The notes under the pieces are model-generated. The model searched no databases and was not told the origin of the DNA. It saw only the letters and a program-made list of their open reading frames with translations. The position numbers and the translations under genes were made by a program. From an uncultured Gammaproteobacteria bacterium (GTDB taxonomy: Bacteria > Patescibacteriota > Microgenomatia > Levybacterales > GWA1-39-11): a stretch of DNA of 64,000 nt. Of this stretch, positions 3,480 to 55,017 are shown piece by piece; position 1 is the first letter of the stretch; every line of letters starts with the position of its first letter. Location: assembly GCA_964425075.1 (NCBI GenBank), contig CAYRKM010000001.1, positions 106,137 through 170,136 of the forward strand, written 5' to 3'.

Positions 3480-4150
3480 AAGGTTGTTTGTGGGACCGAG
3501 AGTACTGCATTCTCGAACCCTTTATCCTTCTCTTTTCATCAGCCCATAAGCATTACTATTATGCTTTTGGTGCACATTGACAAATCCTGAGTGAAAATTC
3601 AGCTGCTCTTGAGCAGTTTTACCAACTAGAGGGGCTTGCCCCGCAAGATTTGGAGCGGCGAGGATGCCAAAAAGAAAACGGGCCAGGGGAAACCTAGGCA
3701 AACGGCTAACTACCGGGCAACTTGGGCTCTGGGAAAGCATGATGCGCGAGCCGGGTGTCCAACCGGACATCTACGAGGGCGTTATTGCCGATGTTGACGC
3801 CTCCGGGCGTCAGATCGTACCCCGTGACCGCGACGAGGAAGGAGAAGCGCATGTGGCAACTAATTAAATGGGTACCTGGAGGTCCCAACAAGGTTCTAGT
3901 CGAGGCTCTCGATGAACCAAGAGCTGCTTCTGCTTTCCGTAGCAGACGGGAGGGCCAGTACACCATACGGGTTATCCAGCCAACTGGAGAGGAAGTCCCA
4001 CTGGACTGGTACAATCTCGCGCTCGACCACGAGATCTAGCTCACTCAGGACGGGTGAAGAAAGAGAAACTACCCGCAAGGGAATTATTTGCCACGAATTG
4101 CTCGTGTCAACTGATTGGGCAGCGCCCTTTTCACTCTTTCTTCACCTTCG
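3480..4150. other. GC-rich ~670-bp island without a convincing CDS (only short mutually overlapping ORFs on both strands); candidate structured RNA or remnant of foreign DNA
   Basis: Abrupt composition shift relative to the AT-rich flanks. Several local hairpins (for example GGGGCTTGCCCC at ~3632, GTGTCCAACCGGACAT at ~3753). Six-frame ORFs are 60-100 aa and overlap each other. Confidence 0.3.
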
Positions 4151-4157
4151 TCCCAAA

Positions 4158-5882: not shown

Positions 5883-6004
5883 AATTTAAGTATGAAATAA
5901 AAATTAACAGGTAGCAAGTAGTAGCGGACTTAAGGTATGGGGAATTATTAAGAGTGATTGGTGGGAGACGACGCGCGATGCGTCGCCCCCCACCGGTTGC
6001 AGAG

Positions 6005-6409
6005 CTACGAAGCAGCGAGTGCTTCCTCGACCTCGAACATGTCGCTGGATCGAAAGAAGAGGAATTTTTGTTTCCATGAGAGACGTTCCACATCAACTGC
6101 GTTGATGATTTCACGTCCCCGCTGGCTATCGTCCCGGACAATCCCTTGGATTTCCGAGAGGCTAATGGGCGCTCCTTCGATCTCGGCATCGTCAAGTTTG
6201 CCCGTGCGGGCATCCCTCAACCCTTCCGAGATGTTCTGGAGCTCTGCCATCAAGATGGCAAAAGCCCCCTCGTCGTACTCCCTGCGGGAGCAGACGACGA
6301 ACCCGAACAGTCGAACAGCCACGAAACACTTCCCTTCTCGGCATAGCCGAATTCGCTCTGCTATATGTCTTACCGAAAGTGACTTTTGAGAACGTGCAAC
6401 CGCGCTCAT
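6005..6409 (-). CDS. hypothetical protein encoded in a GC-rich island (likely horizontally acquired)
   Basis: 134-aa ORF that fills the GC-rich block ~5940-6410. Other-frame ORFs are shadows typical of GC-rich DNA. A CGACGC-GCGAT-GCGTCG hairpin lies just past its stop. Confidence 0.4.
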   Translation of the reverse strand: MSAVARSQKSLSVRHIAERIRLCREGKCFVAVRLFGFVVCSRREYDEGAFAILMAELQNISEGLRDARTGKLDDAEIEGAPISLSEIQGIVRDDSQRGREIINAVDVERLSWKQKFLFFRSSDMFEVEEALAAS

Positions 6410-6570
6410 ACATCACAAACAGTACCTACAATTTTACTCCTTTTGAACCCAAATGTCAAGCTATAGGATGTTTCTGCTACCCAGAAATAGGATAACTTTT
6501 TGAGCAATGACTAATGGTTAATAGCTAATAGTTTTTTTGTATTTCAAACTAATTTTTCTCTTTCGTCGTT

Positions 6571-12869: not shown

Positions 12870-15869
12870 CTATTTAACCACTATATTGAGGATTTTTCCC
12901 TCTACGTATATAACTTTTACAACATCTTGCCCTTCTAAGTACTTTGAAAGTTGCTCTCTTGCCATTTTTTCTATCTTTTCCTTATCCTTTGCCTCAAGAG
13001 ACTTAACCTCAATAATAAGCCTCTTTTTACCGTTAACCTGCACTACAATATCAGCAGTTTCACTCTGAAGCATTGCGCTATCAAAGTCTGGCCATGAGCT
13101 TATGTGAATTGAGTTAGTATTTCCTAATTTCTGCCACAGCTCCTCTGTCATGTGAGGCGCAAATGGGGCCAAAAGCTTTAAATATGTCTCTTTTTCTTCT
13201 CTCATCAACCCTTCTTGAGTAGAAAGAAAGTTATACCATTCCATTAGTGAGGCTAAAGCAGTATTGTTTGTAAACTCTTCTACCTGTTTTGTTACCTTTT
13301 GAATTGTTCTGTGCATAAATCTTTTTGCTTCAATTGAAGCTTCGTTTGTCTCAGGTTTCTCGCTTATGAGTTTCCAAACTTTCTTAAGGAATCTATTCAT
13401 TCCCTCAATTCCACTATCTCTAAAGTCTCCACCCTCAGATAAAGGTGCGATAAACATTAAATAAGAGCGCAAAGTATCAGCCCCATATTTAGAGATATAT
13501 GCATCAGGAACTACCACATTGCCCTTAGACTTTGACATTTTCGCCCCATCTTTTATCACAAGGCCATTAGCAAAAAATCTGGAAAATGGTTCTTCGAAGT
13601 TCAAATATTTCAAATCGTGAAGCGCCATCGTGATAAAACGCGCATACAAAAGATGTAGCACTGAATGTTCAGCTCCGCCAATATACATATTCACAGGAAG
13701 CCATTTTTTAGTAATTTCTGTATCAAAAGGTGCGGTTTGTATATCAATTGATGGGTATCTTAAGAAATACCATGCGCTATCAAGAAACGTATCACTAACA
13801 TCAGTCTCGCGTTTAGCTGGCTTACCACACTTAGGACAATCAACTTCAAAAAACTCAGGATGGTTATCAAGGGGAGCTTTTCCTGTGCCCATTGGTTTCC
13901 AATCTTCTACATCCGGAAGCAAAACAGGCAATTTATCATCAGAAACACAATACCATCCGGGCATGTCATTACGCTCACCCTTATTGTTTGTTGCACAATT
14001 CTCACAATAAATCATCGGAATTGGTGGTCCCCAATAACGTTGTCTAGAGATAAGCCAATCTCTAAGGTGATACTGTATCTTTCTTTTGCCAATTTTCTTT
14101 GCCTCAAGCGAGCTCAAAATTTTATCAGCGTCTTCCGGCATGTGAAAACCATTCCATTCATCAGATCCTATAATTTCTCCTTTTCCCTCAAACGCTTCAC
14201 TTAATTCTCCATTCTTAATTCTTGACTCTTTATCTTGAATTACTTGGACAATCGGTAGATCATATTTCTTAGCAAACTCGAAGTCTCTCTGGTCATGAGC
14301 TGGAACTGCCATAATTGCACCCGTCCCATAGCCTGAAAGAACATAGTCTGCTACAAAAATTCGTATTTTTTTCTGATTGAGTGGATTTATGGCAAAAAGA
14401 CCAGTATCTACTCCAGTTTTTTCTTTTCCTTCTGCAGTACGCTCAATATCCGTCTTGCTCTTCGCCATTTCTATATACTCTTTAACTTCTTGACCATTGT
14501 TATTATTTGCTACTTGCTCCGCAAGCGGGTGCTCTGGTGCAATTACCATAAAAGTTGCCCCATATAATGTATCAGGCCTAGTTGTAAAGACTTTTAGGCT
14601 ATTTAGCAAAACTTCAAGTACCTTTGGCTCAATTTCTCCACAGATGTGATCATCTTTGGACTCAAAATCTATGATTTCTCCACCAATTTGTTCCTTTATG
14701 TAGTCTGCTCTCTCTTTTGGTACAGCAGTATCATTTTTAGCTCTTAACAGTACTATATTCGCCACATTTTTCTTTATGGTTTGTGTATCAAACTGTCCGA
14801 TTTGTTCCTCAAATGACTTATCATGATCTAAAAATCCTGGCTGCATAAATCCGGCTCCTAAAACTAAATTTTTAATAGGCTTTTCCAGCTTTTCAAGAAC
14901 TTTTAAGGCAACGACTGAACCAAGGCTATGCCCTAAAATTACCGTATTTTCATCAATTTGAGCATTTTTTAAAACAAATTCAGCCTGTTCATCTATATTA
15001 GGATTATCAGTATTGGGCAGGTTTTGAGCCCAAACTTTATTGCCCCTCTTTTCTAGTTCTTTCTTAAGCCATGGAAAGAAATTAGCCTCAACTGACCCAG
15101 TATATCCATGCAAAAGAACATAATTAGACTTTTCATCTACTTCAAACTCCACTTCTGCTCCTTCGCTTTTTCCTATCCAATTTCTTTGGGCAATTTTGAC
15201 CTTTTCAGTCCAATTGAGACTCTCAATATTATTTAAAAGTCTCTCAGCGTAATTTGTAATCCTAAAAAACCACTGCTCAAGCTCTTTCTTCTCCACTTTG
15301 CTTCCACATCTCTCACACTCTCCTGCTATAACCTGCTCGTCAGATAACACTGTTTGATCCTGAGGACACCAATTTACGGTCGCCTTTTTACGGTAAGCAA
15401 GGCCATTTTTAAAGAGTTGTGTGAAAAGCCATTGTGTCCATTTATAATATTCAGGGTCATAAGTTTCAATTGTCCTATTCCAATCAAATGAATTTCCAAT
15501 ACTTTTAAGTTGGCGGTAGAAGTTAGACTCTGCTATTTCAGCCTGAACTTTTGGATGACGGCCCACTTTCATGGCATAGTTTTCACTATGGATTCCAAAT
15601 CCATCAAGCCCAATTGGCTCGAAAACATCATTTCCCTTCATTCTCTGGTAACGCCCATATACATCAGCGCCTGTAAAAGCGTACATATTACCCACGTGAA
15701 GACCCTCAGCTGAAGGGTACAGGAACATCATGAGGTTGAAAAAAGGTTTTTTTGCGTTGATTATATTTGGAGAATACAATTTATCACTCTCCCAAACTTC
15801 CTGCCATTTGGCTTCAATTTCTGAGTGGTTATACTCCTTTTTTGAACTGTTTTGTTTATCTTGTGCCAT
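12870..15869 (-). CDS. leuS: leucyl-tRNA synthetase with an inserted alpha/beta-hydrolase (RBBP9/YdeN-type serine hydrolase) domain preceding the CP1 editing domain
   Basis: HIGH-type motif LHVGNMYAFTGADVYGRY. KMSKS motif (KMSKSKGN). CP1 editing signature TTRPDTLYGATFMVIAPEHP...GTGAIMAVPAHDQRD. Anticodon-binding and C-terminal domains present. About 175 extra residues (aa ~250-426) carry GHSLG plus Asp and His. Confidence 0.9.
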   Translation of the reverse strand: MAQDKQNSSKKEYNHSEIEAKWQEVWESDKLYSPNIINAKKPFFNLMMFLYPSAEGLHVGNMYAFTGADVYGRYQRMKGNDVFEPIGLDGFGIHSENYAMKVGRHPKVQAEIAESNFYRQLKSIGNSFDWNRTIETYDPEYYKWTQWLFTQLFKNGLAYRKKATVNWCPQDQTVLSDEQVIAGECERCGSKVEKKELEQWFFRITNYAERLLNNIESLNWTEKVKIAQRNWIGKSEGAEVEFEVDEKSNYVLLHGYTGSVEANFFPWLKKELEKRGNKVWAQNLPNTDNPNIDEQAEFVLKNAQIDENTVILGHSLGSVVALKVLEKLEKPIKNLVLGAGFMQPGFLDHDKSFEEQIGQFDTQTIKKNVANIVLLRAKNDTAVPKERADYIKEQIGGEIIDFESKDDHICGEIEPKVLEVLLNSLKVFTTRPDTLYGATFMVIAPEHPLAEQVANNNNGQEVKEYIEMAKSKTDIERTAEGKEKTGVDTGLFAINPLNQKKIRIFVADYVLSGYGTGAIMAVPAHDQRDFEFAKKYDLPIVQVIQDKESRIKNGELSEAFEGKGEIIGSDEWNGFHMPEDADKILSSLEAKKIGKRKIQYHLRDWLISRQRYWGPPIPMIYCENCATNNKGERNDMPGWYCVSDDKLPVLLPDVEDWKPMGTGKAPLDNHPEFFEVDCPKCGKPAKRETDVSDTFLDSAWYFLRYPSIDIQTAPFDTEITKKWLPVNMYIGGAEHSVLHLLYARFITMALHDLKYLNFEEPFSRFFANGLVIKDGAKMSKSKGNVVVPDAYISKYGADTLRSYLMFIAPLSEGGDFRDSGIEGMNRFLKKVWKLISEKPETNEASIEAKRFMHRTIQKVTKQVEEFTNNTALASLMEWYNFLSTQEGLMREEKETYLKLLAPFAPHMTEELWQKLGNTNSIHISSWPDFDSAMLQSETADIVVQVNGKKRLIIEVKSLEAKDKEKIEKMAREQLSKYLEGQDVVKVIYVEGKILNIVVK

Positions 15870-16216
15870 GTTTTAATTGTAAATTGCCCCCCTGGCGAGC
15901 CTCGCCTTTGGCGGGAAAACTGTGAATTAGCTTCGAAATTCAATACGACTTTATAATCGTTATATCCGACATTACTTTATTATAAGGCATATTTCATTGA
16001 AAATTGAAAATTGAAAAATGAAAATTGCACTCTAGTATACCAAATGAGGCTAAAAAAACACCATGCAATTTACTCCAGGATATATAATTATGGTATAATT
16101 ACTTCCTTAGCAACCCGGTTCTGACACGCAAAAAGCTTGCGCTTATTAGGACTGTGGATGCAGTTCTTTGACAGCGTAGGTTAACACCAACGATAACTCG
16201 CTATAGGAGGTAAAAC

Positions 16217-16489
16217 ATGCCGCTCCTGATTGCTCTGTGGCTGATGTCCTGCATCGGCATTGGAGTACGAACGTACTCCAATCCGAAGGACATTAAGGGC
16301 ATCGCAATTGCGTTTGGACTTTGTGCTGTCCCACTCACGTGGGCATTCGGCAACGGTCCGGCCGCAATCATCATTGCGGTCTCTTTCCTCGTCTGTATTC
16401 TCTTTGGAGCCTGGCTTCGAAGATATTACGGCGAGGAGATCAACCAGTTCTTGTGCAGGCTCGAGGAGAAATTCTACGAGCTGAAATAA
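16217..16489 (+). CDS. small membrane protein in a GC-rich island (hypothetical)
   Basis: Strong SD (TAGGAGGTAAAACATG). Two to three TM helices. GC-rich relative to flanks. Confidence 0.5.
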   Translation: MPLLIALWLMSCIGIGVRTYSNPKDIKGIAIAFGLCAVPLTWAFGNGPAAIIIAVSFLVCILFGAWLRRYYGEEINQFLCRLEEKFYELK

Positions 16490-16544
16490 TGCAGACTAGA
16501 AAACCCAGCGACCAATACCCAACCTGAAAGGAAGGGATGAACAG

Positions 16545-17084
16545 ATGCGACCAGGAAAAGAAACCGTCAAGAACGCAGGCTTTGTTACTATCGTGGCAAC
16601 GTTTACGATCATGATTGGGGTACTCTTTGTGGCTTCTGGAGAGAAACCAGAACCTGCAACGAGCTCCAGGGCCAAAGTTGACCTCCAGTTGTTGGCCTCG
16701 CCAACAACTGTACCAACACTGCTTCCTGCAGCTTCTCGCTGTTCTGAAGCAATATACATATACCCTCAAGGCGTAATTCTATTCCACAACTTGGATCCAT
16801 ATCCTGTCGATGGATTCGATTTCCAAGTCTGCACAACAGACAGGATGACGCCGATAACAGCTGCTGATATGATGGTCGCAGCTAACGAGGGGCAACTCGC
16901 AATGGAGGAAAGTCTCCTCTGGGATCCAGACCTTCTAATGAGAGTATTCTTAGAAGCGGCTGTCCCAAGGATATCGCAACTCCATCCCGAGCTAAGAGGG
17001 CTGCTTCTGGAGACATACTTCCAGTTCATACCTAAAGGAGGAGTCATCCCCACAGCGACAGCAACATCAAGACCCTCTACATAG
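16545..17084 (+). CDS. hypothetical N-terminally TM-anchored protein in a GC-rich island
   Basis: N-terminal TM (FVTIVATFTIMIGVLFVASG). Same GC-rich block as 16217..16489. Overlapping ORFs in other frames are treated as GC shadows. Confidence 0.45.
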   Translation: MRPGKETVKNAGFVTIVATFTIMIGVLFVASGEKPEPATSSRAKVDLQLLASPTTVPTLLPAASRCSEAIYIYPQGVILFHNLDPYPVDGFDFQVCTTDRMTPITAADMMVAANEGQLAMEESLLWDPDLLMRVFLEAAVPRISQLHPELRGLLLETYFQFIPKGGVIPTATATSRPST

Positions 17085-17124
17085 GGGCGGCACATCGATT
17101 GGCTAAGAAACCTACGCGACTAGA

Positions 17125-17165
17125 CTCCCGCTTTGCCCTAACCGGCTGAGCGGGAGAAACCCTTT
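17125..17165 (+). terminator. stem-loop (CTCCCGCT ... AGCGGGAG, 8-bp stem) followed by a short T-run; terminator-like, closes the GC-rich island
   Basis: Perfect 8-bp inverted repeat 17125-17132/17149-17156, then AAACCCTTTT. Confidence 0.35.
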
Positions 17166-17213
17166 TAAAGCCCCAAACTTGAACTTTCTATATAAATCCA
17201 CTACGATTAAATT

Positions 17214-32234: not shown

Positions 32235-34370
32235 TTACCTAACGATGGAGCTTATCTCGATTGCTGTAAAACCAAAACGCACAATGGGGTCAAAGACAGG
32301 AGGTTTGGGTGAAAGGTTTGGCTTAGTTTCAAACTGTTCAAAATAGAACACAATGTTTCGATATGTATCAGGATGTATCGAAAAGTATAGAGGTAGGATT
32401 TGTTTTGAGAGATTATCATCATAAAATGAAACGTACACATAGGGGCTTGTAATTTCTTTTGCAAACATCACACTATCTTCTGTTTCCTTTTGATTAAATC
32501 CTAATTTTTCAGAATATTCCTTAATGGTTTGCTTGAGATCTGAAAGTTTTACAATTTTTCCGTAAGAAGGTCTAGATAATTTTCTGATGGCAGATGTGTA
32601 ATCAAAGGAGATACTTTCAACTACACTTCCATTTGCCCGAAACTTCCCATCCGATAAAAGCGTAATATCAAATCCATTTTGAGGTAAATATAAAACATTT
32701 GTAGAAAAAATTGGAGTACCTACAGATACATTTAAACTAACTCCCTGTTGTCCATATAAATATAACGGGCTTCTATAACACGACCCCGATGTTCCATCTG
32801 CATCTGTCCATGATTGAATAAAACACCCGTCTTTTGTGTCAAGACCCGCACACTGCTGCTGCAAAAGATCACTTCCACAACCCCTGTCTATTGGGGTATT
32901 TTGTATAGGACCTTGTTGAGGCGGTTGACTTTGGTTTATTTCTCGCACTGGAGCAAGTGTAGGTTTTACTGCAAATGTTTCCAATTGAAGCTGCTTTCCC
33001 TGAGAATTAATTGATTTATTTGCCTGCTTGTTTGCATTTAAATTAGAAGTTTTAAAGTATTTAGAACCTTTTAAGGCTATAAATTGCACGTACCCACCAT
33101 TTAGGCTAACTCGTTCACTGCTTCCTGATTTTGGAGTAAAAACTGACAAACTACTTATTGATGGTTCATAACTAAAACCTAGATTCCCAAGCGCTGAGTC
33201 CGAAAGAACACTTTCTGATAACAATAAACTCCCTCCCTGAAGAGATGACCGCACCGATCCTCTATTACCTTCCGGAAGGTCAACTTTTTTAGAGGAATGA
33301 GTGTCAAAATAATATTTATTTATGTCCCTGCCAGTTTTATCATCATAAGAAGCGTAAATTATATTTCCGTCTTGTAAATCCCATTGCGCCTTCTGGTAAA
33401 TTCCGTCAATACCCGAAACCAATTTGGTTCTGATTTTTGTATTTGTATCAAAAACTTCAATAGTATTAGGAGTAACAGACGCTCTTCTGTAACCATTCAC
33501 AATTTCCACACCATCCCCTTTACTACCATCATAGCCTATAAAAAGTATTTTTCCCCCGTCCGGTGATATTATTGGTTGGCTTGAATATGTTCCGTTGGCC
33601 ATTGAAGCAATTTCTGACTTAACTGAACCTGTAAAATTGCTCATACTCATACCATAAGCCCAACCCACACCCGAATTTGGCAAAAATTTATCCATAAAAA
33701 TCTCACCATTATCCGTTATTCCAACAGGATAATGCACTGCAATACCTACGGGCGCAGCCTCATCATAAATTAAATTTTTACTTCCTGGTTTTGAAATATC
33801 AACACTATAAACTCTTGAACGACCTCCCGATAGTATTGATGAATTTGGTGCTGGGCTTATTTCCCATATGGCAATATATTTACCATTTGGTGAAACCACA
33901 TATAAATCAATTCCATACCCTGAATCTGTAGTGGATATAACATTCTCAGTACTATCACTAATCCTATAACTAACAACGCTCTTCCCATAGTCAGATGCGT
34001 CAGTATCTTTTATAAAAATTAAATTGTCATCTGAAACAACACTAACCTGCTTGATGTTATTTGGCAAAACGGCAAGTGTGCTGTTTGTGCTTGTTGATAG
34101 ATCTACTGACTCAATAACTGAATTTTTATCAACCCAATAACCATATACTACTGAATTGTCTGCAAGAAATTTTGTCTCTGTAGACTGCTTTTGTTGTTCT
34201 GTCTCTTTTTTTGAAGAATTTCTCTCAGAATTCCATGCAATCGCACCTCCAAACAAAATAATCACAACTAGCAAAACCACTACTCCTTTTATATTGGTTC
34301 TAGGATCTACTTTCTGAAACCAAGAACTTTGGTTCACCTGAACCTGATGAGGCTGATTATTTTCTTCCAT
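32235..34370 (-). CDS. N-terminally TM-anchored beta-propeller protein; tandem paralog of 30053..32185
   Basis: Same architecture. The first ~45 aa and last ~80 aa are nearly identical to the paralog at protein and DNA level. Confidence 0.55.
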   Translation of the reverse strand: MEENNQPHQVQVNQSSWFQKVDPRTNIKGVVVLLVVIILFGGAIAWNSERNSSKKETEQQKQSTETKFLADNSVVYGYWVDKNSVIESVDLSTSTNSTLAVLPNNIKQVSVVSDDNLIFIKDTDASDYGKSVVSYRISDSTENVISTTDSGYGIDLYVVSPNGKYIAIWEISPAPNSSILSGGRSRVYSVDISKPGSKNLIYDEAAPVGIAVHYPVGITDNGEIFMDKFLPNSGVGWAYGMSMSNFTGSVKSEIASMANGTYSSQPIISPDGGKILFIGYDGSKGDGVEIVNGYRRASVTPNTIEVFDTNTKIRTKLVSGIDGIYQKAQWDLQDGNIIYASYDDKTGRDINKYYFDTHSSKKVDLPEGNRGSVRSSLQGGSLLLSESVLSDSALGNLGFSYEPSISSLSVFTPKSGSSERVSLNGGYVQFIALKGSKYFKTSNLNANKQANKSINSQGKQLQLETFAVKPTLAPVREINQSQPPQQGPIQNTPIDRGCGSDLLQQQCAGLDTKDGCFIQSWTDADGTSGSCYRSPLYLYGQQGVSLNVSVGTPIFSTNVLYLPQNGFDITLLSDGKFRANGSVVESISFDYTSAIRKLSRPSYGKIVKLSDLKQTIKEYSEKLGFNQKETEDSVMFAKEITSPYVYVSFYDDNLSKQILPLYFSIHPDTYRNIVFYFEQFETKPNLSPKPPVFDPIVRFGFTAIEISSIVR

Positions 34371-34501
34371 ACTTCTATACTAGAAGTTTTTAACCTATTG
34401 TGTCAACTTTTTGACTTTACCCCGACTAGATCGTGGTTGACCCCGTTAGAAATTTTGAGAAATATTTCCTTTGATTTTTCAAACCAGTTTTTTTAACGGG
34501 G

Positions 34502-35089
34502 TTGACAAATATATTTACCTCCTTCTACTATATATGTATGGAACAGAACGTTGAAGTGCCCACAACTGCTAGCTCCACATCATTCCTCTCACGATATGTA
34601 ATGATTACATCTATTCTTGTTATCATCGGCGTTGCAGGAATTGCTATTTATTTACTTTTAAATAAAGGATCAATAAAACCTACCTCAAATAATCAAACTC
34701 TCGCCTCCTCCCCAAATTGCACGAATGAAAAAATTTATACTGATGTAAAAGAAGCGTTGCTTTTAGAAGGGCAAAAAATTTGCTACATTGATGCAAAAGC
34801 CCCAGACAAAGAATATGTTTTTCCTAGTGATATTGTCAAACATGCAAATACCCGAAATCTAGTCTATCTTTCACTTGATGGATATAACTTATCAGCTATG
34901 AGAGATTCACTTGAAGTTTTACAGGATTTAGAAGTTCTTAAACTCAAAAATGCACATTTGTCCGCACTTCCAAGGGGAATAGACAAACTTACAAAACTTA
35001 AAGAGCTCGATCTTTCAGGTAACGAATTCACTGAAACAGGAAAAAACGAAATCCACCAGAAATTCCCAAATGTAAAAATCAGCTTCTAA
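34502..35089 (+). CDS. TM-anchored leucine-rich-repeat (LRR) protein
   Basis: TM ITSILVIIGVAGIAIYLLL. LRR units LVYLSLDGYNLSAM / LEVLKLKNAHLSALPRGIDKLTKLKELDLSGNEF. The true start may be the internal Met (MEQNV.., nt 34538). Confidence 0.55.
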   Translation: MTNIFTSFYYICMEQNVEVPTTASSTSFLSRYVMITSILVIIGVAGIAIYLLLNKGSIKPTSNNQTLASSPNCTNEKIYTDVKEALLLEGQKICYIDAKAPDKEYVFPSDIVKHANTRNLVYLSLDGYNLSAMRDSLEVLQDLEVLKLKNAHLSALPRGIDKLTKLKELDLSGNEFTETGKNEIHQKFPNVKISF

Positions 35090-42769: not shown

Positions 42770-42934
42770 AGAGAAGAATTAAAAAGAAAGTATTAAATTG
42801 GAATTTTGCATTAGAAAAGCTCCCTCTTCCTCATTTTGGAAATCAAGCATGAAGTTTCTTTTCTTTTTAAGCTTTTATTTTGCAATTGAAACAAAGAGCG
42901 TAAAGATTTTGTGACCGAAGCACAGCCGGGGGAA

Positions 42935-43130
42935 TCCTCGTCCCGATGCATATCGGGATCGAGGAGGGGGTGATATCCCACACTGTGCGAGGGAACAAAA
43001 TTAGCTCGACTTTCATTGCAAATTCTTTTTGGTACTTTTGTTAAGACAAAAGTACAAGAGTAAACATTGACCAGAGCTTTTGGTACTTTTGGCGGTTCAA
43101 AAGTACAAGAGAAAACAGCGACAAAAAAAC
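42935..43130. repeat. intergenic structured repeats: perfect palindrome CCTCGTCCCGAT-gcat-ATCGGGATCGAGG plus two tandem copies of the family hairpin (GTACTTTTG-n6-CAAAAGTAC-AAGAG)
   Basis: 43025-43063 and 43073-43112 each hold a 9-bp stem/6-nt loop hairpin. The second is preceded by ATTGACCAGAGCTTTTGG and followed by AAGAGAAAAC, as in copy B at 61468. Confidence 0.55.
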
Positions 43131-43190
43131 AAGCCACAAGTAAGTATAAAATTGCAAAATAAATCGCCCTTTGCTAAACTGTAACCTCTT

Positions 43191-44339
43191 ATGCGGCATC
43201 ACAAAGCTTCTTTTGTAGTGGCAAAAAAATACATTTCAGCAATTAACCAAGCACATATTTTCCTCAAAAAAGAATTCGCAAGTTTTTTAATTTTTCTATC
43301 AACATATCTTAAAGATAAGATTATGTTCTTCTCCACTAAATTCGAAAAAAATAAAAATGTTGTGGTTAAGTCTGTTCTTATAAAAAGAGGTAAAAGGAAT
43401 CGCTTCTTTCTTCATGTTAGCGCTATGGCTGTACTTAGCATAGGAGTCCTCATATCTCCCTTCATTACTGAATCAAACCCCTTTACACACCAAGAAAACC
43501 TTCTGACCTTTGCTCAAGAGTTATCTGAAGAAAATCAAAGCCTTGCACCAAATGACGTATTTGAGACCCAATTATCCGATAAGCCTAGAGCAGAAATTAT
43601 TGAATATACTGTACAAAAGGGAGATACAGTGTCTGGAATTGCAAAGAGATTTGGAATATCAGATGACACAATCCGTTGGGAAAATGGCCTTAGAGGCGAC
43701 AATATAACTGTTGGGGATACTCTAAAAATCCTACCGGTTACGGGTATTGCTCACAAAGTAAGTTCTGGAGACACAATTTATACAATTGCTAAAAAATATG
43801 ACTCAAATGCTCAGGCTATCGTTGATTTTCCCTTTAACGACTTTGCAGACCCTCAAACCTTCTCACTTGTTACCGGTCAAACAGTTATTGTGCCAGATGG
43901 GGTTAAACCTGAAGTTCAGCCAACATATATAAGACGCCAACCCTTTATTGCAACAGGGCCGACAGTTGTTTCGGGTGCTGGGTTTACTTGGCCAGTTAGA
44001 GGTAGCCTCAATCAGTACTTCTCTTGGTATCATAGAGCAATTGACATAGGTGCACCAGTTGGTACCCCAATCGTTTCAGCTCAAAGCGGCGTTGTTTCTC
44101 AGGTGTATGTAGGTGGATGGAATGGTGGATATGGAACCCACGTTATTATTTCTGGCGACAATGGCTATTCTACTCTTTATGCTCACATGTCAGGCGTTAA
44201 TGTTTCCCCTGGTCAAAAAGTAAGCGCAGGCTCAAGCCTTGTGGGTTGGGTGGGGCTAACAGGAAGAACTACAGGTGCACATCTTCACTTTGAAATTCGA
44301 GGCTCAGGCGGACTATATAATCCACTTAGTTTCTTATAG
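43191..44339 (+). CDS. LysM-domain M23 family peptidoglycan endopeptidase
   Basis: Two LysM motifs (YTVQKGDTVSGIAKRFGISDDTIRWENGL; HKVSSGDTIYTIAKKYDSNAQAI). M23 catalytic HRAIDIGAPVGTPIVSA ... GYGTHVII ... GAHLHFEI. Confidence 0.85.
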   Translation: MRHHKASFVVAKKYISAINQAHIFLKKEFASFLIFLSTYLKDKIMFFSTKFEKNKNVVVKSVLIKRGKRNRFFLHVSAMAVLSIGVLISPFITESNPFTHQENLLTFAQELSEENQSLAPNDVFETQLSDKPRAEIIEYTVQKGDTVSGIAKRFGISDDTIRWENGLRGDNITVGDTLKILPVTGIAHKVSSGDTIYTIAKKYDSNAQAIVDFPFNDFADPQTFSLVTGQTVIVPDGVKPEVQPTYIRRQPFIATGPTVVSGAGFTWPVRGSLNQYFSWYHRAIDIGAPVGTPIVSAQSGVVSQVYVGGWNGGYGTHVIISGDNGYSTLYAHMSGVNVSPGQKVSAGSSLVGWVGLTGRTTGAHLHFEIRGSGGLYNPLSFL

Positions 44340-45908: not shown

Positions 45909-46607
45909 ATGAAAAAGTCAGTAATTGCACTTTGTGCATCACTTCTTTTCGCAACAAGTACAGCAATGGCAAGCGCCGCTGGTACCGGATATGGACAAAG
46001 TAATTGTCAAATGATCTACGGTGGGGGAGAAGTTTGTAGCGATAAAATAGAATTTACTATTGATAAGAAAGTACTTACTCCAAACAATAGCGGTTTCGTC
46101 GACAATCTTGGTTCAAACGACGCAAAATTTCAACCTGGACAGCAAGTTACATTTAAAATCATTGTTAAAAATACCGGAAACAAGAAAATTGAAAGGCTTG
46201 ATGTAAGAGATACTCTTCCATCATATATAACATTTGTTTCAGGCGTTGGTACATATGATAAAAACGCAAATGTTATAAGTTACACTATTTCAAACCTTGA
46301 AAAAGGAGCAACCAATGAGCAGTCTTTTATTGGAGCAATTGCTTCAGCTGATAAGCTTCCACAAAATCAAAACGTTGTATGTCTTACAAACCATGCACAG
46401 GCAACCGACAATAATGGCATAGTTGCGAAGGACGATGCAGGTCTTTGTGTGGAAAAAGGAATTATCGTAAAAAAACCAACTCCACAAGTATTTGAAAGTG
46501 TTCCTGTGAAGAAAATTCCTGAAACAGGACCTGAAGCACTCTCTCTTATCGCATTAATTCCTGCAGGACTTGCAGGATTTGCACTACGAAAGAAAAAATT
46601 TAATTAA
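45909..46607 (+). CDS. secreted DUF11-like repeat-domain protein with LPXTG-type sortase sorting signal (IPETG + hydrophobic + RKKK)
   Basis: Signal peptide (VIALCASLLFATSTAMASAA). KIIVKNTGNKKIERLDVRDTLPSYITFVSGVG resembles the DUF11 repeat. C-terminal KKIPETGPEALSLIALIPAGLAGFALRKKKFN. Confidence 0.6.
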   Translation: MKKSVIALCASLLFATSTAMASAAGTGYGQSNCQMIYGGGEVCSDKIEFTIDKKVLTPNNSGFVDNLGSNDAKFQPGQQVTFKIIVKNTGNKKIERLDVRDTLPSYITFVSGVGTYDKNANVISYTISNLEKGATNEQSFIGAIASADKLPQNQNVVCLTNHAQATDNNGIVAKDDAGLCVEKGIIVKKPTPQVFESVPVKKIPETGPEALSLIALIPAGLAGFALRKKKFN

Positions 46608-46699
46608 CTTATATACAATTGAGGTTAGAGAAGGCAGCTTTTCTCACACACTCTTCTATTCTTCCCAAGTTTTAGACCTCACCCCAAAAAAGCTCCCTT

Positions 46700-46730
46700 C
46701 CCTAACTTTAAGTTAGGGGTTTTTGTTTGG
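46700..46730 (+). terminator. rho-independent terminator (CCCTAAC-tttaa-GTTAGGG then GTTTTTGTTTGG)
   Basis: Perfect 7-9 bp inverted repeat followed by a T-run, ~90 nt after the stop of 45909..46607. Confidence 0.6.
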
Positions 46731-47181
46731 AAACATCGCCGTTTTGCATGGCAAATATCCAACTCACAAAAACCTTGTTCTTTGACAAGGTAACAGGAAA
46801 AAGGCATTTTTGGTGCCGGGCACAGCGTACCATATTGAACCAAAAGGTTCATATGTCCGATTTCACAATCGGTCATAACAAGCTGCTACGAAGGGGTAAA
46901 ACCTGACGTATAAATATGGTGCGCGCTGTCCGGCGCCAAATGAGCGTGGAAAAACGGGTTTAGAGAAAGGAGGCCAATAATGGCCTATTGCTTGAACTTC
47001 TGCATACTCCTGCTCGACTCCCTTTGGGGAGCGAACAGGATCCGTGCAGGCCCGTTTATTTGAAACGGAAACATCAACCCAGTAGCATAGTAATGACTAA
47101 GCCTTCGCGCAAGCGGAGAGGCAGGTAACTCTGCTAAACCATGCATGCCGGCAAAGTCCGGTTAGCAAAAGGGAGATCACC

Positions 47182-47913
47182 GTGAGGTGGTATTCGTACA
47201 TTGGCCTGGGAGCCGCCGTGATCTTCATGGCTGGATTCTTCAGTGCCTGCTCGGACGACAGTGGAGCCACTGCTGACGAGATCGCTGCTGCGATCATCGC
47301 CGCCCAAGCGACTGCAACCCCAGCAGCAACGGCGGCAGCAACGGCAACGGCTAGCGCACTCACGCCCGACCAAATTCGCCAGATCGTTCTGGACGAAATG
47401 GCCAAGGCGGGGCTGCCAGAGCCGACCAGCGCACAGCTGCAAGAGATCCTCAAGAGCCTCACTGAGGCCCTGAAGGGCTCGACCCAGACTGCAGATCAGT
47501 TCCGCGGTGCCGTCAAGGTCTGGCTGACTTCTAACCAGAAGGTCCAGGCTGGCGTCGTGCCCGCCTATAACCCAGCAGCGTTCCCCAAGAGCGCCGCTGA
47601 GGCAGCAGCCATCTTCGGAGGCGACGCTTCCCGTTGGGAGCCGACGGCTGACTGCTGTGGTTGGCATCTGCGCGAGGAGGCGTTCACCACTCTCATCCAG
47701 CCGAAAGGTTTCCTGGGTGAGGGCTACAACGACACCAAGCCTGGGAAGAATCCGGACTGCTACACGTTCGTTGCGCCAACTTCGGTCCAGGGCGCCACGA
47801 TCTGGCAAGAGGCCGGCACCTACCCGAACGCCGTCGCGCTTCAGAAGAAGATGGCCATCCCCGTCTGGGATGATGGCAAGCAGCACGCTTGCCAGGTACT
47901 CGCAACGCCATAA
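47182..47913 (+). CDS. putative lipoprotein (GTG start) encoded in a GC-rich island; likely horizontally acquired
   Basis: GGGAG SD 7 nt before the GTG. Signal plus lipobox-like AGFFSAC. Ala/Thr-rich linker. Strongly GC-rich versus flanks. A ~280-bp GC-rich leader lies upstream. Confidence 0.55.
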   Translation: MRWYSYIGLGAAVIFMAGFFSACSDDSGATADEIAAAIIAAQATATPAATAAATATASALTPDQIRQIVLDEMAKAGLPEPTSAQLQEILKSLTEALKGSTQTADQFRGAVKVWLTSNQKVQAGVVPAYNPAAFPKSAAEAAAIFGGDASRWEPTADCCGWHLREEAFTTLIQPKGFLGEGYNDTKPGKNPDCYTFVAPTSVQGATIWQEAGTYPNAVALQKKMAIPVWDDGKQHACQVLATP

Positions 47914-48008
47914 GCGCTTAGCTTCTCGCATGGGAGGGGGGTCCGATACGTCGGCCCCCCTCAAATACTTTCACTGGGACATTCCTGTTACCTTGTCCCC
48001 TTTGCCCG

Positions 48009-49382
48009 ATGTGTATCGGGCCTGATGAGTCCAAAAGGACGAAAAGGAAAATGAAGAATTTATTCAAAAAATACAATACACTTGACACTTTGATAGTTAT
48101 CTCTAGCTACCCAAAAAAACAGGAGATATATAGCAAGGGTGTATGCGCTGTGGCCTCATTTACCAAAAACACCATTAGGCCACTTATTAAGAAAGGTCAA
48201 TATAAAAAAATTGTTGTTCTGACAATGATTGTTGATAAAGAAGAAGTCTACGAAGAGGATGGTATTTTAGTAGTAAGATGTTTTAAACGCAATAACCCTC
48301 TGTCTTATTTTTCCCTTTTAAAAAAACTTTTACATTTCTCTCTTGCAAAAAGAGTGCTTATAGAATTTGAGTTTGCCTCTTTTGGAGATACAAAAGCTAC
48401 TCTTGCCATTCTTCCTCTAATTTGGTCGCTTTTTTTCTTGGGAAAAAATGTAACTCTTGTTATTCACCAAGTCGTTATCGACCTTCAAAAATTAAGTGGG
48501 CATATCGGAATAAATTCAAAGGAACTTATCTCACTACTCTTCAATCCAGGACTAAAACTTTATTACAAACTATTATCTTTTCCTGTCTCGTCAATTATAG
48601 TTCTCGAAGATAGCCTTAAAGAATCGCTTTCAACCATCGTAAATAAAGACAAAATAACTGTTATTCCTCATGGTGTACCAATTGTTAATAAAATATTTTC
48701 AAAAAATAAAGCCAAACAGAAATTGGGTGCAAAAAATGAAGTTGTGATTTTGTATTTTGGCTACCTTACATGGTATAAAGGCGTTGATTTCCTTATAAAG
48801 TCGCTTCTTAACCAAAAAACTTTTAAAGGTAAAAAAATTCGCTTGATAATTGCAGGTGGACCAAGTTTTACTCAGGAAGAGAAGTCTCACTACAAGAAAT
48901 TTCTTGCAAAAATCTATAACCTTATAAATAAAGCCCCCGATAGAATAACTATTACTGGATTTGTGAAGGAAGAAGACATACCAGTCTATTTTGCCGCTGC
49001 TGACCTTGTCGTATTTCCATATCGTACTTTTATTTCCTCTTCTGGTCCTCTCTCATTTGCTCTTGCTTACAACAAACCTTTTCTTATTTCCTCTAGATTA
49101 GAAACCATTTTGGACAGCATTGACGCAAAAAAATCGCTGCAAAGAGCGGGAATTACTAAAAATGATGTTGTGTTTAACTTTAACTCAAAAGATTTATTGA
49201 CAAAAATATCAAACTCTCTATCAAAAGAACAATTAAAGAAACTTGAAAGATTCAGCTTATATTTATCAAAAGAAAGGTCATTTGGCAATTTGTCTGCATC
49301 TTATCAAGAAGTACTCTCAAGAAATGTTACGAGAAAAATTCCTTTAATTCCATATCCTACATATCAGTTCCACCATGAATAA
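48009..49382 (+). CDS. glycosyltransferase family 1 (GT-B, GT4-like)
   Basis: C-terminal GT1 signature region ..ITITGFVKEEDIPVYFAAADLVVFPYR... Probable true start MKNLFKK at nt 48051. Confidence 0.65.
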   Translation: MCIGPDESKRTKRKMKNLFKKYNTLDTLIVISSYPKKQEIYSKGVCAVASFTKNTIRPLIKKGQYKKIVVLTMIVDKEEVYEEDGILVVRCFKRNNPLSYFSLLKKLLHFSLAKRVLIEFEFASFGDTKATLAILPLIWSLFFLGKNVTLVIHQVVIDLQKLSGHIGINSKELISLLFNPGLKLYYKLLSFPVSSIIVLEDSLKESLSTIVNKDKITVIPHGVPIVNKIFSKNKAKQKLGAKNEVVILYFGYLTWYKGVDFLIKSLLNQKTFKGKKIRLIIAGGPSFTQEEKSHYKKFLAKIYNLINKAPDRITITGFVKEEDIPVYFAAADLVVFPYRTFISSSGPLSFALAYNKPFLISSRLETILDSIDAKKSLQRAGITKNDVVFNFNSKDLLTKISNSLSKEQLKKLERFSLYLSKERSFGNLSASYQEVLSRNVTRKIPLIPYPTYQFHHE

Positions 49383-53781: not shown

Positions 53782-54499
53782 ATAACCCACGACCCTTACG
53801 ATCAGGGCTTTCTTGAACAATTGTAAGTATTTAATCCCCACCAAGTTAATACATTTCCCTCATACCCCTCTTACGCTACCTCTCCACACTATAGTTGTCT
53901 TTGAAGTGCACTTTGGACATTAAAATTTCAATAATCGAAAAATAGTGTTTTAAGAAAAAAGTTGTAGACATGGTTATCCACATTTTTTATTTATTTTAAA
54001 AAACGTTGATATATCAATCTATTTTGTTAATCCAAAAACTCTAGGGTTATATAAAACCATATCAGTTTTGTTATAGGTTGAAGATGTTGACAGCATGTGC
54101 TATACTTTTCTTTAACTTGTATTTTGGATGTTTTATAAACATCCTCATATATGGGCATACAACATGAAACTTTTCTCTTTCACTAAGAAATCACAACAAA
54201 AGAGTCTTCGTAGAAGAAGAATTATCTCCGATTATTATCAAGAATCCATTAACACTTACGGGAAAAAGCAATTGATATCACTCATTGACAGAGGCCTTAA
54301 CCCTCAGTGGTAAATAGTACTTACCATAGGGTTGGATCTTTTGAGTTCATGAGGATCTTTTACAAGAAGTTACAGAAAAATTCCTGGCTATGCTAGGAGA
54401 AAGAAAAAGAGCATCGCTTTCGCTACTACAAAGATAAGTTCAAGTACGAAAAGCAATGCTCTTTTAACTGTTAGCTTTTAGTCTTTTAGGCAGGGTAAG

Positions 54500-55017
54500 A
54501 CTATGCTATAGAACAAAGTAGCAAAAGTAATTTCTCTTGTCAAGAAAACTATGTGAGGCAAATTTTGGCGGTTTGGACTGTCGGATAGGCCTTTTTTTAG
54601 AAAAAAAACTAGATTCTTTGGAAGCTCGTTCTGTCGGTTTGTTTGTAGGTTTTGTTGAGGTAGTAGTGTTGGGCACCATGCCCGCTTTGCCTTTAACCGG
54701 CGGAGTTTGTAAGTTTACTTGGAGGTAGGAGTGTTGGGCAGGCATTCTTACTTCCAATTAAGCATATAAATTTTCGGTGCTTAATTGGAAGGAAGCTCGT
54801 CTTACCTTCAATTAAGAATAGAAGCTTTGGCAGGCGGGGGCATTATTACCTCTATAAAGTTTATAAGCATAGCTTGCGGACTTTGTTCCTAAAGCAAAGC
54901 TTCATTTTCTCGTTCTACTTCAAAAATAGGCAAAGCTTGCGGACTTTGTTCCTAAAGCAAAGCTTGCGAACTTCGTTCTAAAGCAAATTTTCAGTCATTT
55001 GGGCAGAACCCTAACTA
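54500..55017. repeat. hairpin-dense repeat tract downstream of pyruvate kinase: 14-bp perfect inverted repeat CTTCCAATTAAGCA..TGCTTAATTGGAAG and three copies of AGCTTGCG(G/A)ACTT(T/C)GTTC(C)TAAAGCAA
   Basis: Direct repeats at ~54868, ~54928 and ~54958. The 14-bp inverted repeat is at ~54757-54797. The overlapping 83-aa ORF is not credible. Confidence 0.5.

Follow-up and report, generated by a model that had tools for sequence, protein, structure and literature searches.

A GC-rich, highly structured gene cassette with a predicted hammerhead ribozyme at its 3' edge in a Candidatus Levybacteria genome

What keeps a single gene GC-rich in an AT-rich genome? The question is raised by a short segment of contig CAYRKM010000001.1, of which we analysed a stretch of 64,000 nucleotides (nt; hereafter the window) with a mean GC content of 0.384. 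The segment, which we call the cassette (~46777–48047), carries gene X, an open reading frame (ORF) of 243 amino acids (aa) at 47182..47913 on the + strand, together with a long leader and, at its 3' edge, a predicted hammerhead ribozyme directly ahead of the next gene, which encodes a GT1 glycosyltransferase. The ORF of X has a GC content of 0.622 and a GC content at third codon positions (GC3) of 0.717, sharply atypical against the 0.215–0.287 of five flanking genes. GC is 0.48–0.55 across 46850–47200 (in steps of 100 nt), and the cassette is one of only four segments in the 64 kb in which the 200-nt GC content is at least 0.5 over more than 300 nt. A preliminary description, made from the sequence alone, had placed a GC-rich island at 46880–47990. 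The island is real, every item described in it is found in the sequence and its composition lies far beyond chance, but its limits were drawn too narrowly: the structured region runs from ~46777 to 48047, wider on both sides. The same description missed the hammerhead at the 3' edge, the helix that brackets the cassette and a co-varying hairpin in the leader.

On balance, we lean towards reading the segment as an expression cassette that is self-contained and native to a Candidatus Levybacteria genome (Candidate Phyla Radiation, CPR), in which the messenger RNA (mRNA) of X is selected for structure and the ribozyme separates the mRNAs of X and GT1. Sequence and comparison support the native cassette, the co-varying hammerhead, the bracketing pair of repeats, the co-varying leader hairpin and an excess of RNA structure that extends to synonymous sites.

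The ribozyme, the terminal helix and the structure of the transcript

The predicted fold of the entire cassette RNA has a minimum free energy (MFE) of −570.5 vs. −465 ± 11 for dinucleotide shuffles (z −9.5), making it 105 kcal/mol more stable, whereas control segments of equal length from the GT1 gene and from rho give z +1.4 and z −0.9. Among the related loci retrieved for comparison (L002–L020), the cassettes of L007 (z −12.7), L009 (z −10.6) and L011 (z −8.0) behave in the same way and compact orthologs of X do not (z +0.6 and +1.4); the + strand is more structured than the − strand in every case. The excess reaches into the placement of synonymous codons. When codons were shuffled among identical amino acids, with protein and codon usage kept (20 shuffles), five of six GC-type X genes beat all shuffles (z −9.0, −7.5, −6.9, −2.6 and, for the window, −2.2), and AT-type orthologs and neighbouring genes gave z −1.0 to +1.6. 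Cellular mRNAs do not usually carry such a signal in their synonymous codons. When the whole window was scanned, all four GC islands proved over-structured (z −3 to −7.7; median −0.3). The GC richness is best read as the compositional mark that long selection on the structure or stability of the RNA has left in an AT-biased genome, much as at rRNA and tRNA genes, which explains it only in part.

A complete type III hammerhead ribozyme is predicted at 47999..48047 (+), just ahead of the GT1 gene (48051..49382, +; Pfam Glycos_transf_1), whose start aligns with orthologs beginning MKNLF, MSLF or MEKLI. Cleavage is expected after U48003. In 5' to 3' order, the motif consists of the 5' strand of stem III (CCUU, 47999–48002), the cleavage-site nucleotide (U, 48003), stem I (GCCCGAU-GUGU-AUCGGGC, 48004–48021; 7 bp with a GUGU loop), the core segment CUGAUGA (48022–48028), stem II (GUCC-AAAA-GGAC, 48029–48040; 4 bp with an AAAA loop), the core segment GAA (48041–48043; GAAA with A48044) and the 3' strand of stem III (AAGG, 48044–48047), which forms an open stem of 4 bp. 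All expected core elements are present (C3-U4-G5-A6-N7-G8-A9, G12-A13-A14, A15.1:U16.1 and G10.1:C11.1), the two pairs being A48044:U48002 and the closing pair G48029:C48040, and the arrangement of three helices with stems I and II looped and stem III open is that of type III. This is the only convincing match to a hammerhead core in the 64 kb. The 73 nt at 47976–48048 are 92% identical to L007, vs. 71% for the adjacent coding sequence.

The core is intact in all five variants retrieved, i.e., in the window, L007, L009, L011 (where N7 is C) and L018, and all three stems show compensatory and G·U changes among them, as judged by a scripted structural parse of the five variants rather than a covariance model. 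Stem I occurs as GCCCGAU/AUCGGGC, GUCCGAU/AUCGGGC (with a G·U pair), UACCGCU/GGCGGUA and UGCCAGU/GCUGGUA, stem II as GUCC/GGAC, GUUC/GGAC and GUUC/GAAC, and stem III as CCUU/AAGG, UCCUU/AAGGA, CCCU/AGGG and UUCCU/AGGAA; the L011 and L018 copies differ in stem I, and their stem II is extended. The cleavage triplet conforms to the NUH rule (UUU in the window, CUU in L011 and L018), with U at position 17 in all five. The AUG of GT1 (48051) lies 3 nt past stem III, and in four of the five hammerhead loci the start codon lies 4–6 nt past GAAA; the 3' strand of stem III is itself the purine-rich stretch just ahead of the GT1 start codon. No hammerhead was found in the compact AT-type loci, and L002/L010 have a 19-bp hairpin and AT-rich repeats where the ribozyme would sit. 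A hammerhead-like string in the L010 leader (CUGAAAAGGACGAAA) has no G8 and no proper order of stems and was dismissed by inspection.

The same minimal type III design, including an identical CCUGAUGAGUCCAAAAGGACGAAA segment, occurs between co-directional genes in seven IMG/VR viral contigs (L049–L055), where a GC hairpin directly abuts the stem III of 4–5 bp in all seven. Judged by their sequences, the viral and Levybacteria hammerheads would form a coherent sub-family. The hammerhead of L053 follows a gene that is ArdC-like by sequence inspection. A loose pattern of arm plus hammerhead, searched in the viral contigs, gave 28 matches, all by chance and none with a ribozyme. The same setting has been described for prophage hammerheads, and hammerheads that cut polycistronic RNAs are on record; one in a halovirus lies 13 nt before a start codon, and the mapped 5' end of the halovirus mRNA falls within three nucleotides of the cleavage site (PMC3088659).

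The place of the local viral hairpin is taken in the cassette by one arm of a long-range inverted repeat. The left arm (GACAAGGTAACAGGAA) is at 46784..46799 (+) and the right arm (TTCCTGTTACCTTGTC) at 47982..47997 (+), its end 1 nt short of stem III and 6 nt short of the cleavage site. The two arms are 16 nt long, 100% complementary and 1182 nt apart; by our own estimate, ~3e-4 perfect inverted pairs of 16 nt are expected in 1.5 kb. Perfect inverted repeats of 12–16 nt surround all five cassette types for which both ends were retrieved, and their arms co-vary: the sequence is GACAAGGTA-ACAGGAA in the window, GACAAGGTATACA in L007, GACAAGGTATACAAA in L009, AAAGGTATACAGGA in L002/L010 and AAGGTATACAGG in L011, and in the window one T is missing from both arms. 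The right arm keeps a distance of 5–7 nt to the cleavage site. The terminal helix is retained in the MFE structure of the whole cassette and in a two-piece cofold, which for the window, L007 and L011 places it beside a hammerhead of canonical fold; without its partner, the 3' piece misfolds in L007 and L009. Ahead of the right arm stands a GC-rich hairpin in the 3' untranslated region (UTR) (47936..47960, +; GGGGGG-U-CCGA-UACG-UCGG-CCCCCC), with analogous hairpins in L007 and L009. A GUUCUUU just left of the arm can pair with GT1 codons 2–3 in the window and L009, which is not kept in L007 and L011.

Taken together, these features suggest how the locus might be expressed. The cassette would be transcribed together with GT1 and the gene for a GT-C-like membrane protein that follows it, and the terminal helix would stack on the 4-bp stem III and aid folding of the ribozyme. 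Self-cleavage after U48003 would free an X mRNA with a 2',3'-cyclic-phosphate 3' end that is paired to its own 5' region, and an mRNA with paired ends could be protected and long-lived. The second product, the GT1 mRNA, would begin with a 5'-OH and carry two hairpins as a compact cap. Cleavage would also dissolve stem III and so remove the pairing that occludes the initiation region of GT1, by which the ribozyme would insulate translation of GT1 from the hyper-structured RNA upstream.

The terminal helix of this account requires that the left arm be part of the RNA. At the left edge of the cassette, an GTTCTTTGACA motif (46777..46787, +) overlaps the left arm by 4 nt and holds a −35-like TTGACA; it is kept as TTGACA or TTAACA in L007, L009, L010 and L011, and the exact 11-mer occurs only twice in the 64 kb, here and at 16163–16173, the left edge of another GC island (island 3). 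No credible −10 element follows the left-edge TTGACA at any locus. A scan with the sigma-70 consensus found one internal promoter-like site (47060–47088) and no convincing −10 after the TTGACA at 46782. The co-varying hairpin of the leader starts 24 nt after TTGACA in the window and 21 nt after it in L009, too close for a transcript starting from TTGACA to contain it, which favours a start further upstream and places the left arm in the RNA. A conserved TTGCATG upstream (~46744–46750 in the window) is a candidate −35 element.

Several observations weigh against the reading of the cassette as a structure-selected mRNA released by a ribozyme. A TTGACA opens each of the four GC islands, in island 2 as part of a consensus TTGACA-17-TAAAAT; if the TTGACA were the −35 element of the cassette, the left arm would be untranscribed, an RNA helix impossible and the bracket a DNA-level feature. 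The terminal helix is without any G·U pair in any lineage, so an RNA helix is indistinguishable from a DNA-level repeat, and L002/L010 have the inverted repeat but no hammerhead. The structure signal of the coding sequence is modest in this window (z −2.2 to −3.1), and the L002/L010 coding regions combine GC richness (GC3 0.65) with no excess of structure (z approximately −0.5 to −0.7); selection on structure is therefore real but not the source of all GC richness. As to the ribozyme itself, the Rfam model Hammerhead_3 (RF00008) gives 18.8 bits in the window, as a local match (model positions 7–48), and 21.4 bits in L007, at full length, against a gathering score of 48.5. The low scores, which cover the Levybacteria copies only, result from very short loops and stems, and the gathering score is a database criterion, not a biochemical one. 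The NUH rule permits a U at the cleavage site, yet this choice is uncommon and tends to cleave more slowly. The purine stretch is 2–3 nt from the GT1 AUG, vs. 5–6 nt at X, at a small leader ORF and in island 3, a spacing so short that a classical Shine-Dalgarno role is doubtful. Finally, cleavage, the transcription start site and co-transcription of the cassette are what we infer from sequence.

The points on the left edge and on the helix lead to the first alternative, a DNA-level element, in which an exchangeable or invertible cassette sits at a fixed chromosomal site, the repeats serve its recombination or transposition, recombination keeps the arms identical and the hammerhead is a mere neighbour. 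Much of the repeat would suit it: perfect Watson–Crick complementarity over 12–16 bp without G·U in five lineages, a 1-nt deletion shared by both arms, and a left arm that overlaps a −35-like TTGACA as in promoter-switching invertons. The cargo between the arms varies (1.2–3.3 kb, 1–7 ORFs), and islands 1 and 3 likewise have short bracketing repeats right after TTGACA. The cassette's own repeat motif, searched at the other GC islands, is not shared by them. The X protein of L011 is nearest that of L010 (77%) though their GT1 identity is just 50%, which raised cassette exchange between lineages as a candidate; other host genes give no support for it. Of the hallmarks of an inverton, the flanking inverted repeats are there, but the independent assemblies with both ends (window, L007, L009, L010/L002 and L011/L014/L015) all have the cassette in a single orientation, and no recombinase, transposase, integrase or reverse transcriptase lies within ±10 kb. 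The right arm is moreover fixed 5–7 nt before the cleavage site, just where viral hammerheads have a local hairpin, and the cofold yields a coherent helix-plus-hammerhead. We therefore consider a DNA-level element unlikely.

The leader and its conserved hairpin

The leader in front of X (46784–47190) has an MFE of −166.7 kcal/mol, vs. −117.5 ± 5.1 for shuffles (z −9.7), and none of 100 shuffles is as stable. The preliminary description took it for an untranslated stretch that might be a regulatory leader or riboswitch. That it is strongly structured RNA is borne out. Its label as untranslated needs correction, as it holds a small ORF of 27 codons (46980–47063, +; MAYCLNFCILLLDSLWGANRIRAGPFI), which follows 6 nt after a perfect AGGAGG (46968–46973) and has no Pfam match. 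In L010, a 51-aa ORF for a transmembrane (TM) peptide follows the conserved hairpin and has no similarity to this 27-aa ORF.

The part of the leader common to L007, L009, L010 and L011 is one long hairpin just upstream of the first Shine-Dalgarno sequence (46809..46940, + in the window), with GGUGCCGG/CCGGCGCC as outer and GCGUACCAUAU/AUAUGGUGCGC as inner stem; in this genome its apical loop is enlarged by ~80 nt of extra helices (~46836–46912). In an alignment of five lineages, 12 of its 26 pairs show double compensatory changes, vs. 5.7 ± 1.7 double changes in shuffles (0 of 500 reach 12) and 0–3 in slid registers. Several positions are G·U, which implies RNA of the + strand. The remainder (46941..47181, +) is genome-specific and has no counterpart in the other four leaders.

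It could be argued that the leader (46809–47181) is a ligand- or protein-responsive element, riboswitch-like or autoregulatory, that controls translation of X, which would be compatible with a structure-selected mRNA. The very strong structure, the small upstream ORF with its perfect Shine-Dalgarno sequence and the co-varying hairpin, placed just upstream of the first Shine-Dalgarno sequence and topped in the four other lineages by a conserved GAAAGCUGC apical loop, would suit such a role. We nevertheless find it a doubtful one. A single hairpin is conserved rather than a multi-helix aptamer, the other ~240 nt lack counterparts, and a 5' stabiliser, a site for RNase III or one for a binding protein would explain the hairpin just as well; we obtained no evidence of a riboswitch. 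A scan of the 64 kb with Rfam at gathering thresholds returned 0 hits, and at E ≤ 10 no family beyond the weak Hammerhead_3 match was recovered from 46600–48150 and four related loci, the leader included. The spurious matches at that level in 46600–48150 were to miRNA or lncRNA models, with a 16.8-bit SAM-IV match inside the coding sequence.

Gene X and the origin of the island

Details of X given in the preliminary description hold. The GTG start is preceded by GGGAG at 47172–47176, 5 nt upstream; the N-terminus (MRWYSYIGLGAAVIFMAGFFSAC) combines a single basic residue with a hydrophobic core and F-S-A-C; and an Ala/Thr-rich linker (AAAIIAAQATATPAATAAATATASA) and a CC pair (TADCCGWH) are found as described. 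The lipobox-type site is MRWYSYIGLGAAVIFMAGFF-SAC with Cys23, which, read by eye, we take to fit the PROSITE-type lipobox rule, and the sequence fits a protein with a lipoprotein-type signal. Most homologs have an uncleaved TM anchor instead of the lipobox, and all sampled members of the family are membrane-anchored or secreted. Ten relatives came out of a first protein search, their similarity to X confined to the C-terminal ~110 residues, and an exhaustive profile search gave 93 representatives of the family, 54 of them at E ≤ 1e-10; the conserved domain comprises roughly the last 115 aa. No Pfam domain was found in any sampled member, and X itself has no match in Pfam, in PDB or to a known fold; its AlphaFold2 model has a pLDDT of 81. 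Two cysteines, C193 and C237, are nearly invariant and, with the signal or anchor, fit an extracytoplasmic place for X, which we describe as a putative lineage-restricted, membrane-anchored extracytoplasmic protein of an orphan family. The genomic context, with a sortase-substrate surface protein and glycosyltransferases, suggests a role in the cell envelope. X is under purifying selection (ratio of nonsynonymous to synonymous differences, pN/pS, 0.19–0.35) and is a real, selected protein gene.

Upstream of the cassette lies a gene for a DUF11/CLIPPER surface protein (45909–46607), which ends in a sorting signal (IPETG, a hydrophobic stretch and RKKK). Past this gene stands a terminator-like hairpin and its T run (46699–46719), in line with the preliminary description, which placed the island downstream of the terminator of an LPXTG protein. 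The locus has the order M23/LysM peptidase, Rho, DUF11/CLIPPER, X, GT1 and a large GT-C-like membrane protein. The DUF11–X–GT1–GT-C part was found in L002–L008, L009–L015, L019 and L020, and the order is the same in all retrieved contexts except one short contig, L017, where the upstream gene encodes an AsnC-type regulator. Two of the related contigs are named Candidatus Levybacteria. L009 (CAZVGS010000009.1) is labelled 'uncultured Gammaproteobacteria' and yet has a Levybacteria-type locus (Rho 86% identical to that of the window, with the same cassette, hammerhead and gene order); going by its sequence, the label seems to stem from an error of binning or classification.

Within this conserved order X comes in two compositional types. 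In three lineages (L003–5, L006 and L020) it is compact, abuts its neighbours without spacers and has a host-like GC3 of 0.27–0.38, and in the window, L007/8, L009, L002/L010/L013, L011/14/15, L017/18 and L019 it is GC-rich (GC3 0.55–0.72), in most cases with long flanking non-coding regions. At residues identical between orthologs, GC3 is 0.53–0.77 in cassette genes vs. 0.27–0.38 in AT-type ones. The ribozyme occurs in the window, L007, L009, L011 and L018, the bracket without ribozyme in L002/L010, and neither in L003, L006 and L020. In L010 (3514–6836, corresponding to 4277–7597 of L002), the bracketing repeat encloses a GC-rich cargo of 3.3 kb with about seven ORFs, including those for a 173-aa TM protein, a 183-aa lipoprotein-like protein and X, and the downstream glycosyltransferase has gained a GT2 domain at its N-terminus.

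The preliminary description explained the island by import of the lipoprotein gene from a high-GC donor, with the leader carried along. On this view, the imported genes would now be slowly ameliorating. Its composition would be in keeping with such an origin (GC3 0.717 vs. ~0.27 in the neighbours), as would the GTG start with GGGAG, the variable size of the cargo (one gene here vs. seven ORFs in L002/L010) and the GC-rich L010 coding regions without excess structure. However, relatives of X are native to related AT-rich genomes at this same locus, with orthologs in every retrieved relative including those of the compact AT-type, and X diverges in step with its neighbours. Identities to the window in L009, L010 and L011 are 86%, 78% and 78% for Rho, 71%, 62% and 67% for the M23 peptidase, 47%, 44% and 42% for the GT-C-like protein and 76%, 67% and 67% for X; X thus diverges at roughly the pace of the host genes, and GT1 shows the same parallel. 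GC3 has stayed high in each cassette lineage despite near saturation of synonymous sites (pS 0.57–0.77 between cassette lineages), and all four GC islands of the window are hyper-structured segments resembling transcription units. The window has no tRNA or tmRNA by a dedicated scan, and neither mobility genes within ±10 kb of the cassette nor direct repeats accompany the atypical composition. No donor lineage was identified, and all relatives with context are Levybacteria-type loci, a negative that is not conclusive because the 54 family representatives at E ≤ 1e-10 carry no taxonomy. The preliminary description had named native homologs in AT-rich relatives, combined with no RNA family in the leader, as the outcome that would speak against import, and this is the outcome that we obtained. 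Foreign origin is thus unsupported, and we regard it as very unlikely.

Least probable of all, in our estimation, is an integrated or domesticated viroid-, retrozyme- or Obelisk-like unit, i.e., an RNA of ~1.26 kb excised by the hammerhead and possibly circularised: its size of 1264 nt, X as one large ORF (besides the 27-codon leader ORF), the type III hammerhead, the z of −9.5 and the 20-bp stem III of viroid or retrozyme geometry that arises, by inspection, on joining 48047 to 46784 are outweighed by the fact that chromosomal DNA encodes it, at a syntenic site conserved across several assemblies, by a single hammerhead in one polarity with no second hammerhead or other ribozyme found near the left arm or in the leader, so that ribozymes alone cannot excise a unit-length RNA, by a branched rather than rod-like fold in which only 28 pairs span >500 nt, by a secreted host-type protein with AT-type cellular orthologs, and by the seven ORFs between the arms of L010.

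Known systems and other structured segments

The role of chromosomal and phage hammerheads in bacteria is not settled. Perreault et al. (2011) offered mRNA processing as one possibility only (PMC3088659). Like the bacterial and phage hammerheads of that study, the present one has a canonical core, stands between co-directional genes just before a start codon and should split a long transcript into mRNAs of gene length. Unlike them, it belongs not to a prophage but to the chromosome of a CPR bacterium, at a locus of housekeeping and cell-envelope genes, is a single copy rather than one of a flanking pair, has U at the cleavage site in all variants, and follows an upstream unit that is GC-rich and hyper-structured (PMC3088659). 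The helix that abuts stem III is here formed with the 5' end of the RNA of the upstream gene, over a distance of 1.2 kb, and is not a local hairpin as in the viral hammerheads. The hammerhead class and its intergenic placement are thus already known; new are its occurrence at a locus of envelope genes on a CPR chromosome, the replacement of the local hairpin by a long-range helix, and the tie to a persistently GC-rich, structure-selected coding unit. A full-text literature search found no paper that mentions both hammerhead ribozymes and the Candidate Phyla Radiation.

Parallels exist in other systems. Synthetic insulators of the RiboJ type place a hammerhead between the 5' UTR and the ribosome-binding site, and here too the hammerhead directly precedes the ribosome-binding region and would strip the upstream RNA and leave a structured 5'-OH end; unlike them it is natural and lies between two cistrons, which it would insulate, where the synthetic devices part a promoter-derived UTR from a gene. 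Pairing of 5' and 3' UTRs and 5' stabiliser hairpins, as in Bacillus subtilis hbs, Staphylococcus aureus icaR and the Escherichia coli ompA leader, is linked to nuclease protection or translational control. The cassette resembles these mRNAs in its long-range end pairing and the long hairpin near its 5' end, but its 3' end would be made by a ribozyme and not by a terminator, its helix is perfect over 12–16 bp and covaries across deep lineages, and its coding region is structure-selected as well. GC-rich islands of structural RNA in AT-rich genomes (rRNA, tRNA and non-coding RNA genes) are the basis of screens for non-coding RNA by GC content. The cassette is likewise a discrete, GC-rich, over-stable segment of an AT-rich genome, but it is protein-coding, under purifying selection and carries a structure signal in the placement of synonymous codons. 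With viroids, retrozymes and Obelisks it shares the type III hammerhead, a short stem III in need of extension and a structured RNA of ~1.26 kb, and with Obelisks a similar size and one ORF of ~240 aa; unlike them it is DNA-encoded at a fixed syntenic locus, with one ribozyme in one polarity and a branched fold, and its secreted, host-type ORF has ordinary cellular orthologs.

With the orthologous gene order in three forms (with ribozyme, with bracket only and with neither), the locus represents a clean natural experiment, and a ribozyme that ends 3 nt from a start codon and has its stem III extended by a long-range helix leads to predictions on the protection of mRNA ends and on translational insulation. 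A GC3 held 40–45 points above that of the genome over long evolutionary times, combined with structure selection at synonymous sites, is unusual for a cellular mRNA. The case also advises caution, as GC-rich islands in CPR genomes need not mean horizontal transfer.

The three other GC islands of the window, as noted, share the over-structured fold and the TTGACA edge. Island 1 (3540–4170; z −3.3 and −5.2) has a left edge CACATTGACA (3574–3583) that resembles the left edge of L011, an 18-nt bracketing repeat (78%; 3589–3606/4119–4136) and, as the sole ORF with a coding hint, one of 94 aa (3755–4039) without a Pfam match. Island 2 (5900–6460, −; z −4.0) begins right after its TTGACA-17 nt-TAAAAT (6457–6429, − strand) and contains a 134-aa ORF (6409–6005) without a Pfam match and a strong terminal hairpin (~5990–5955). 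Island 3 (16001–17200; z −3.6 to −6.6) is bracketed by a 9-bp repeat (GCGTAGGTT, 16174–16182, and AACCTACGC, 17110–17118), after which a terminator-like hairpin follows at ~17127–17158; it encodes a 90-aa membrane protein (16217–16489, with an AGGAGG Shine-Dalgarno sequence) and a 179-aa TM protein (16545–17084), for which a homolog search found nothing outside its own genome.

A more speculative idea, which we put forward with little confidence, is that the four islands and the cassettes of other Levybacteria might be a distinct class of cellular genes, namely coding units under viroid-like selection for global RNA structure, with paired ends and, here, a hammerhead 3' end. Their mRNA would be exceptionally stable, closed and possibly circularised by RtcB, and could serve long-lived or exported messages of a minimal-genome episymbiont, or the class could be the domesticated descendant of a ribozyme-bearing RNA element.

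Three further segments of the window are not GC-rich and fold well beyond their shuffles: 34201–34600 (z −4.7), 42801–43200 (z −5.3), which lies just upstream of the M23/LysM gene, and 54401–55000 (z −5.1 to −6.2). They have no Rfam match and may be unannotated structured RNAs. Elsewhere in the window, the leucyl-tRNA synthetase (12870–15869, −) is interrupted between the catalytic core and the editing domain by the insertion of an alpha/beta serine-hydrolase domain (Pfam Ser_hydrolase, PF06821; E 1.4e-11; residues 250–404).

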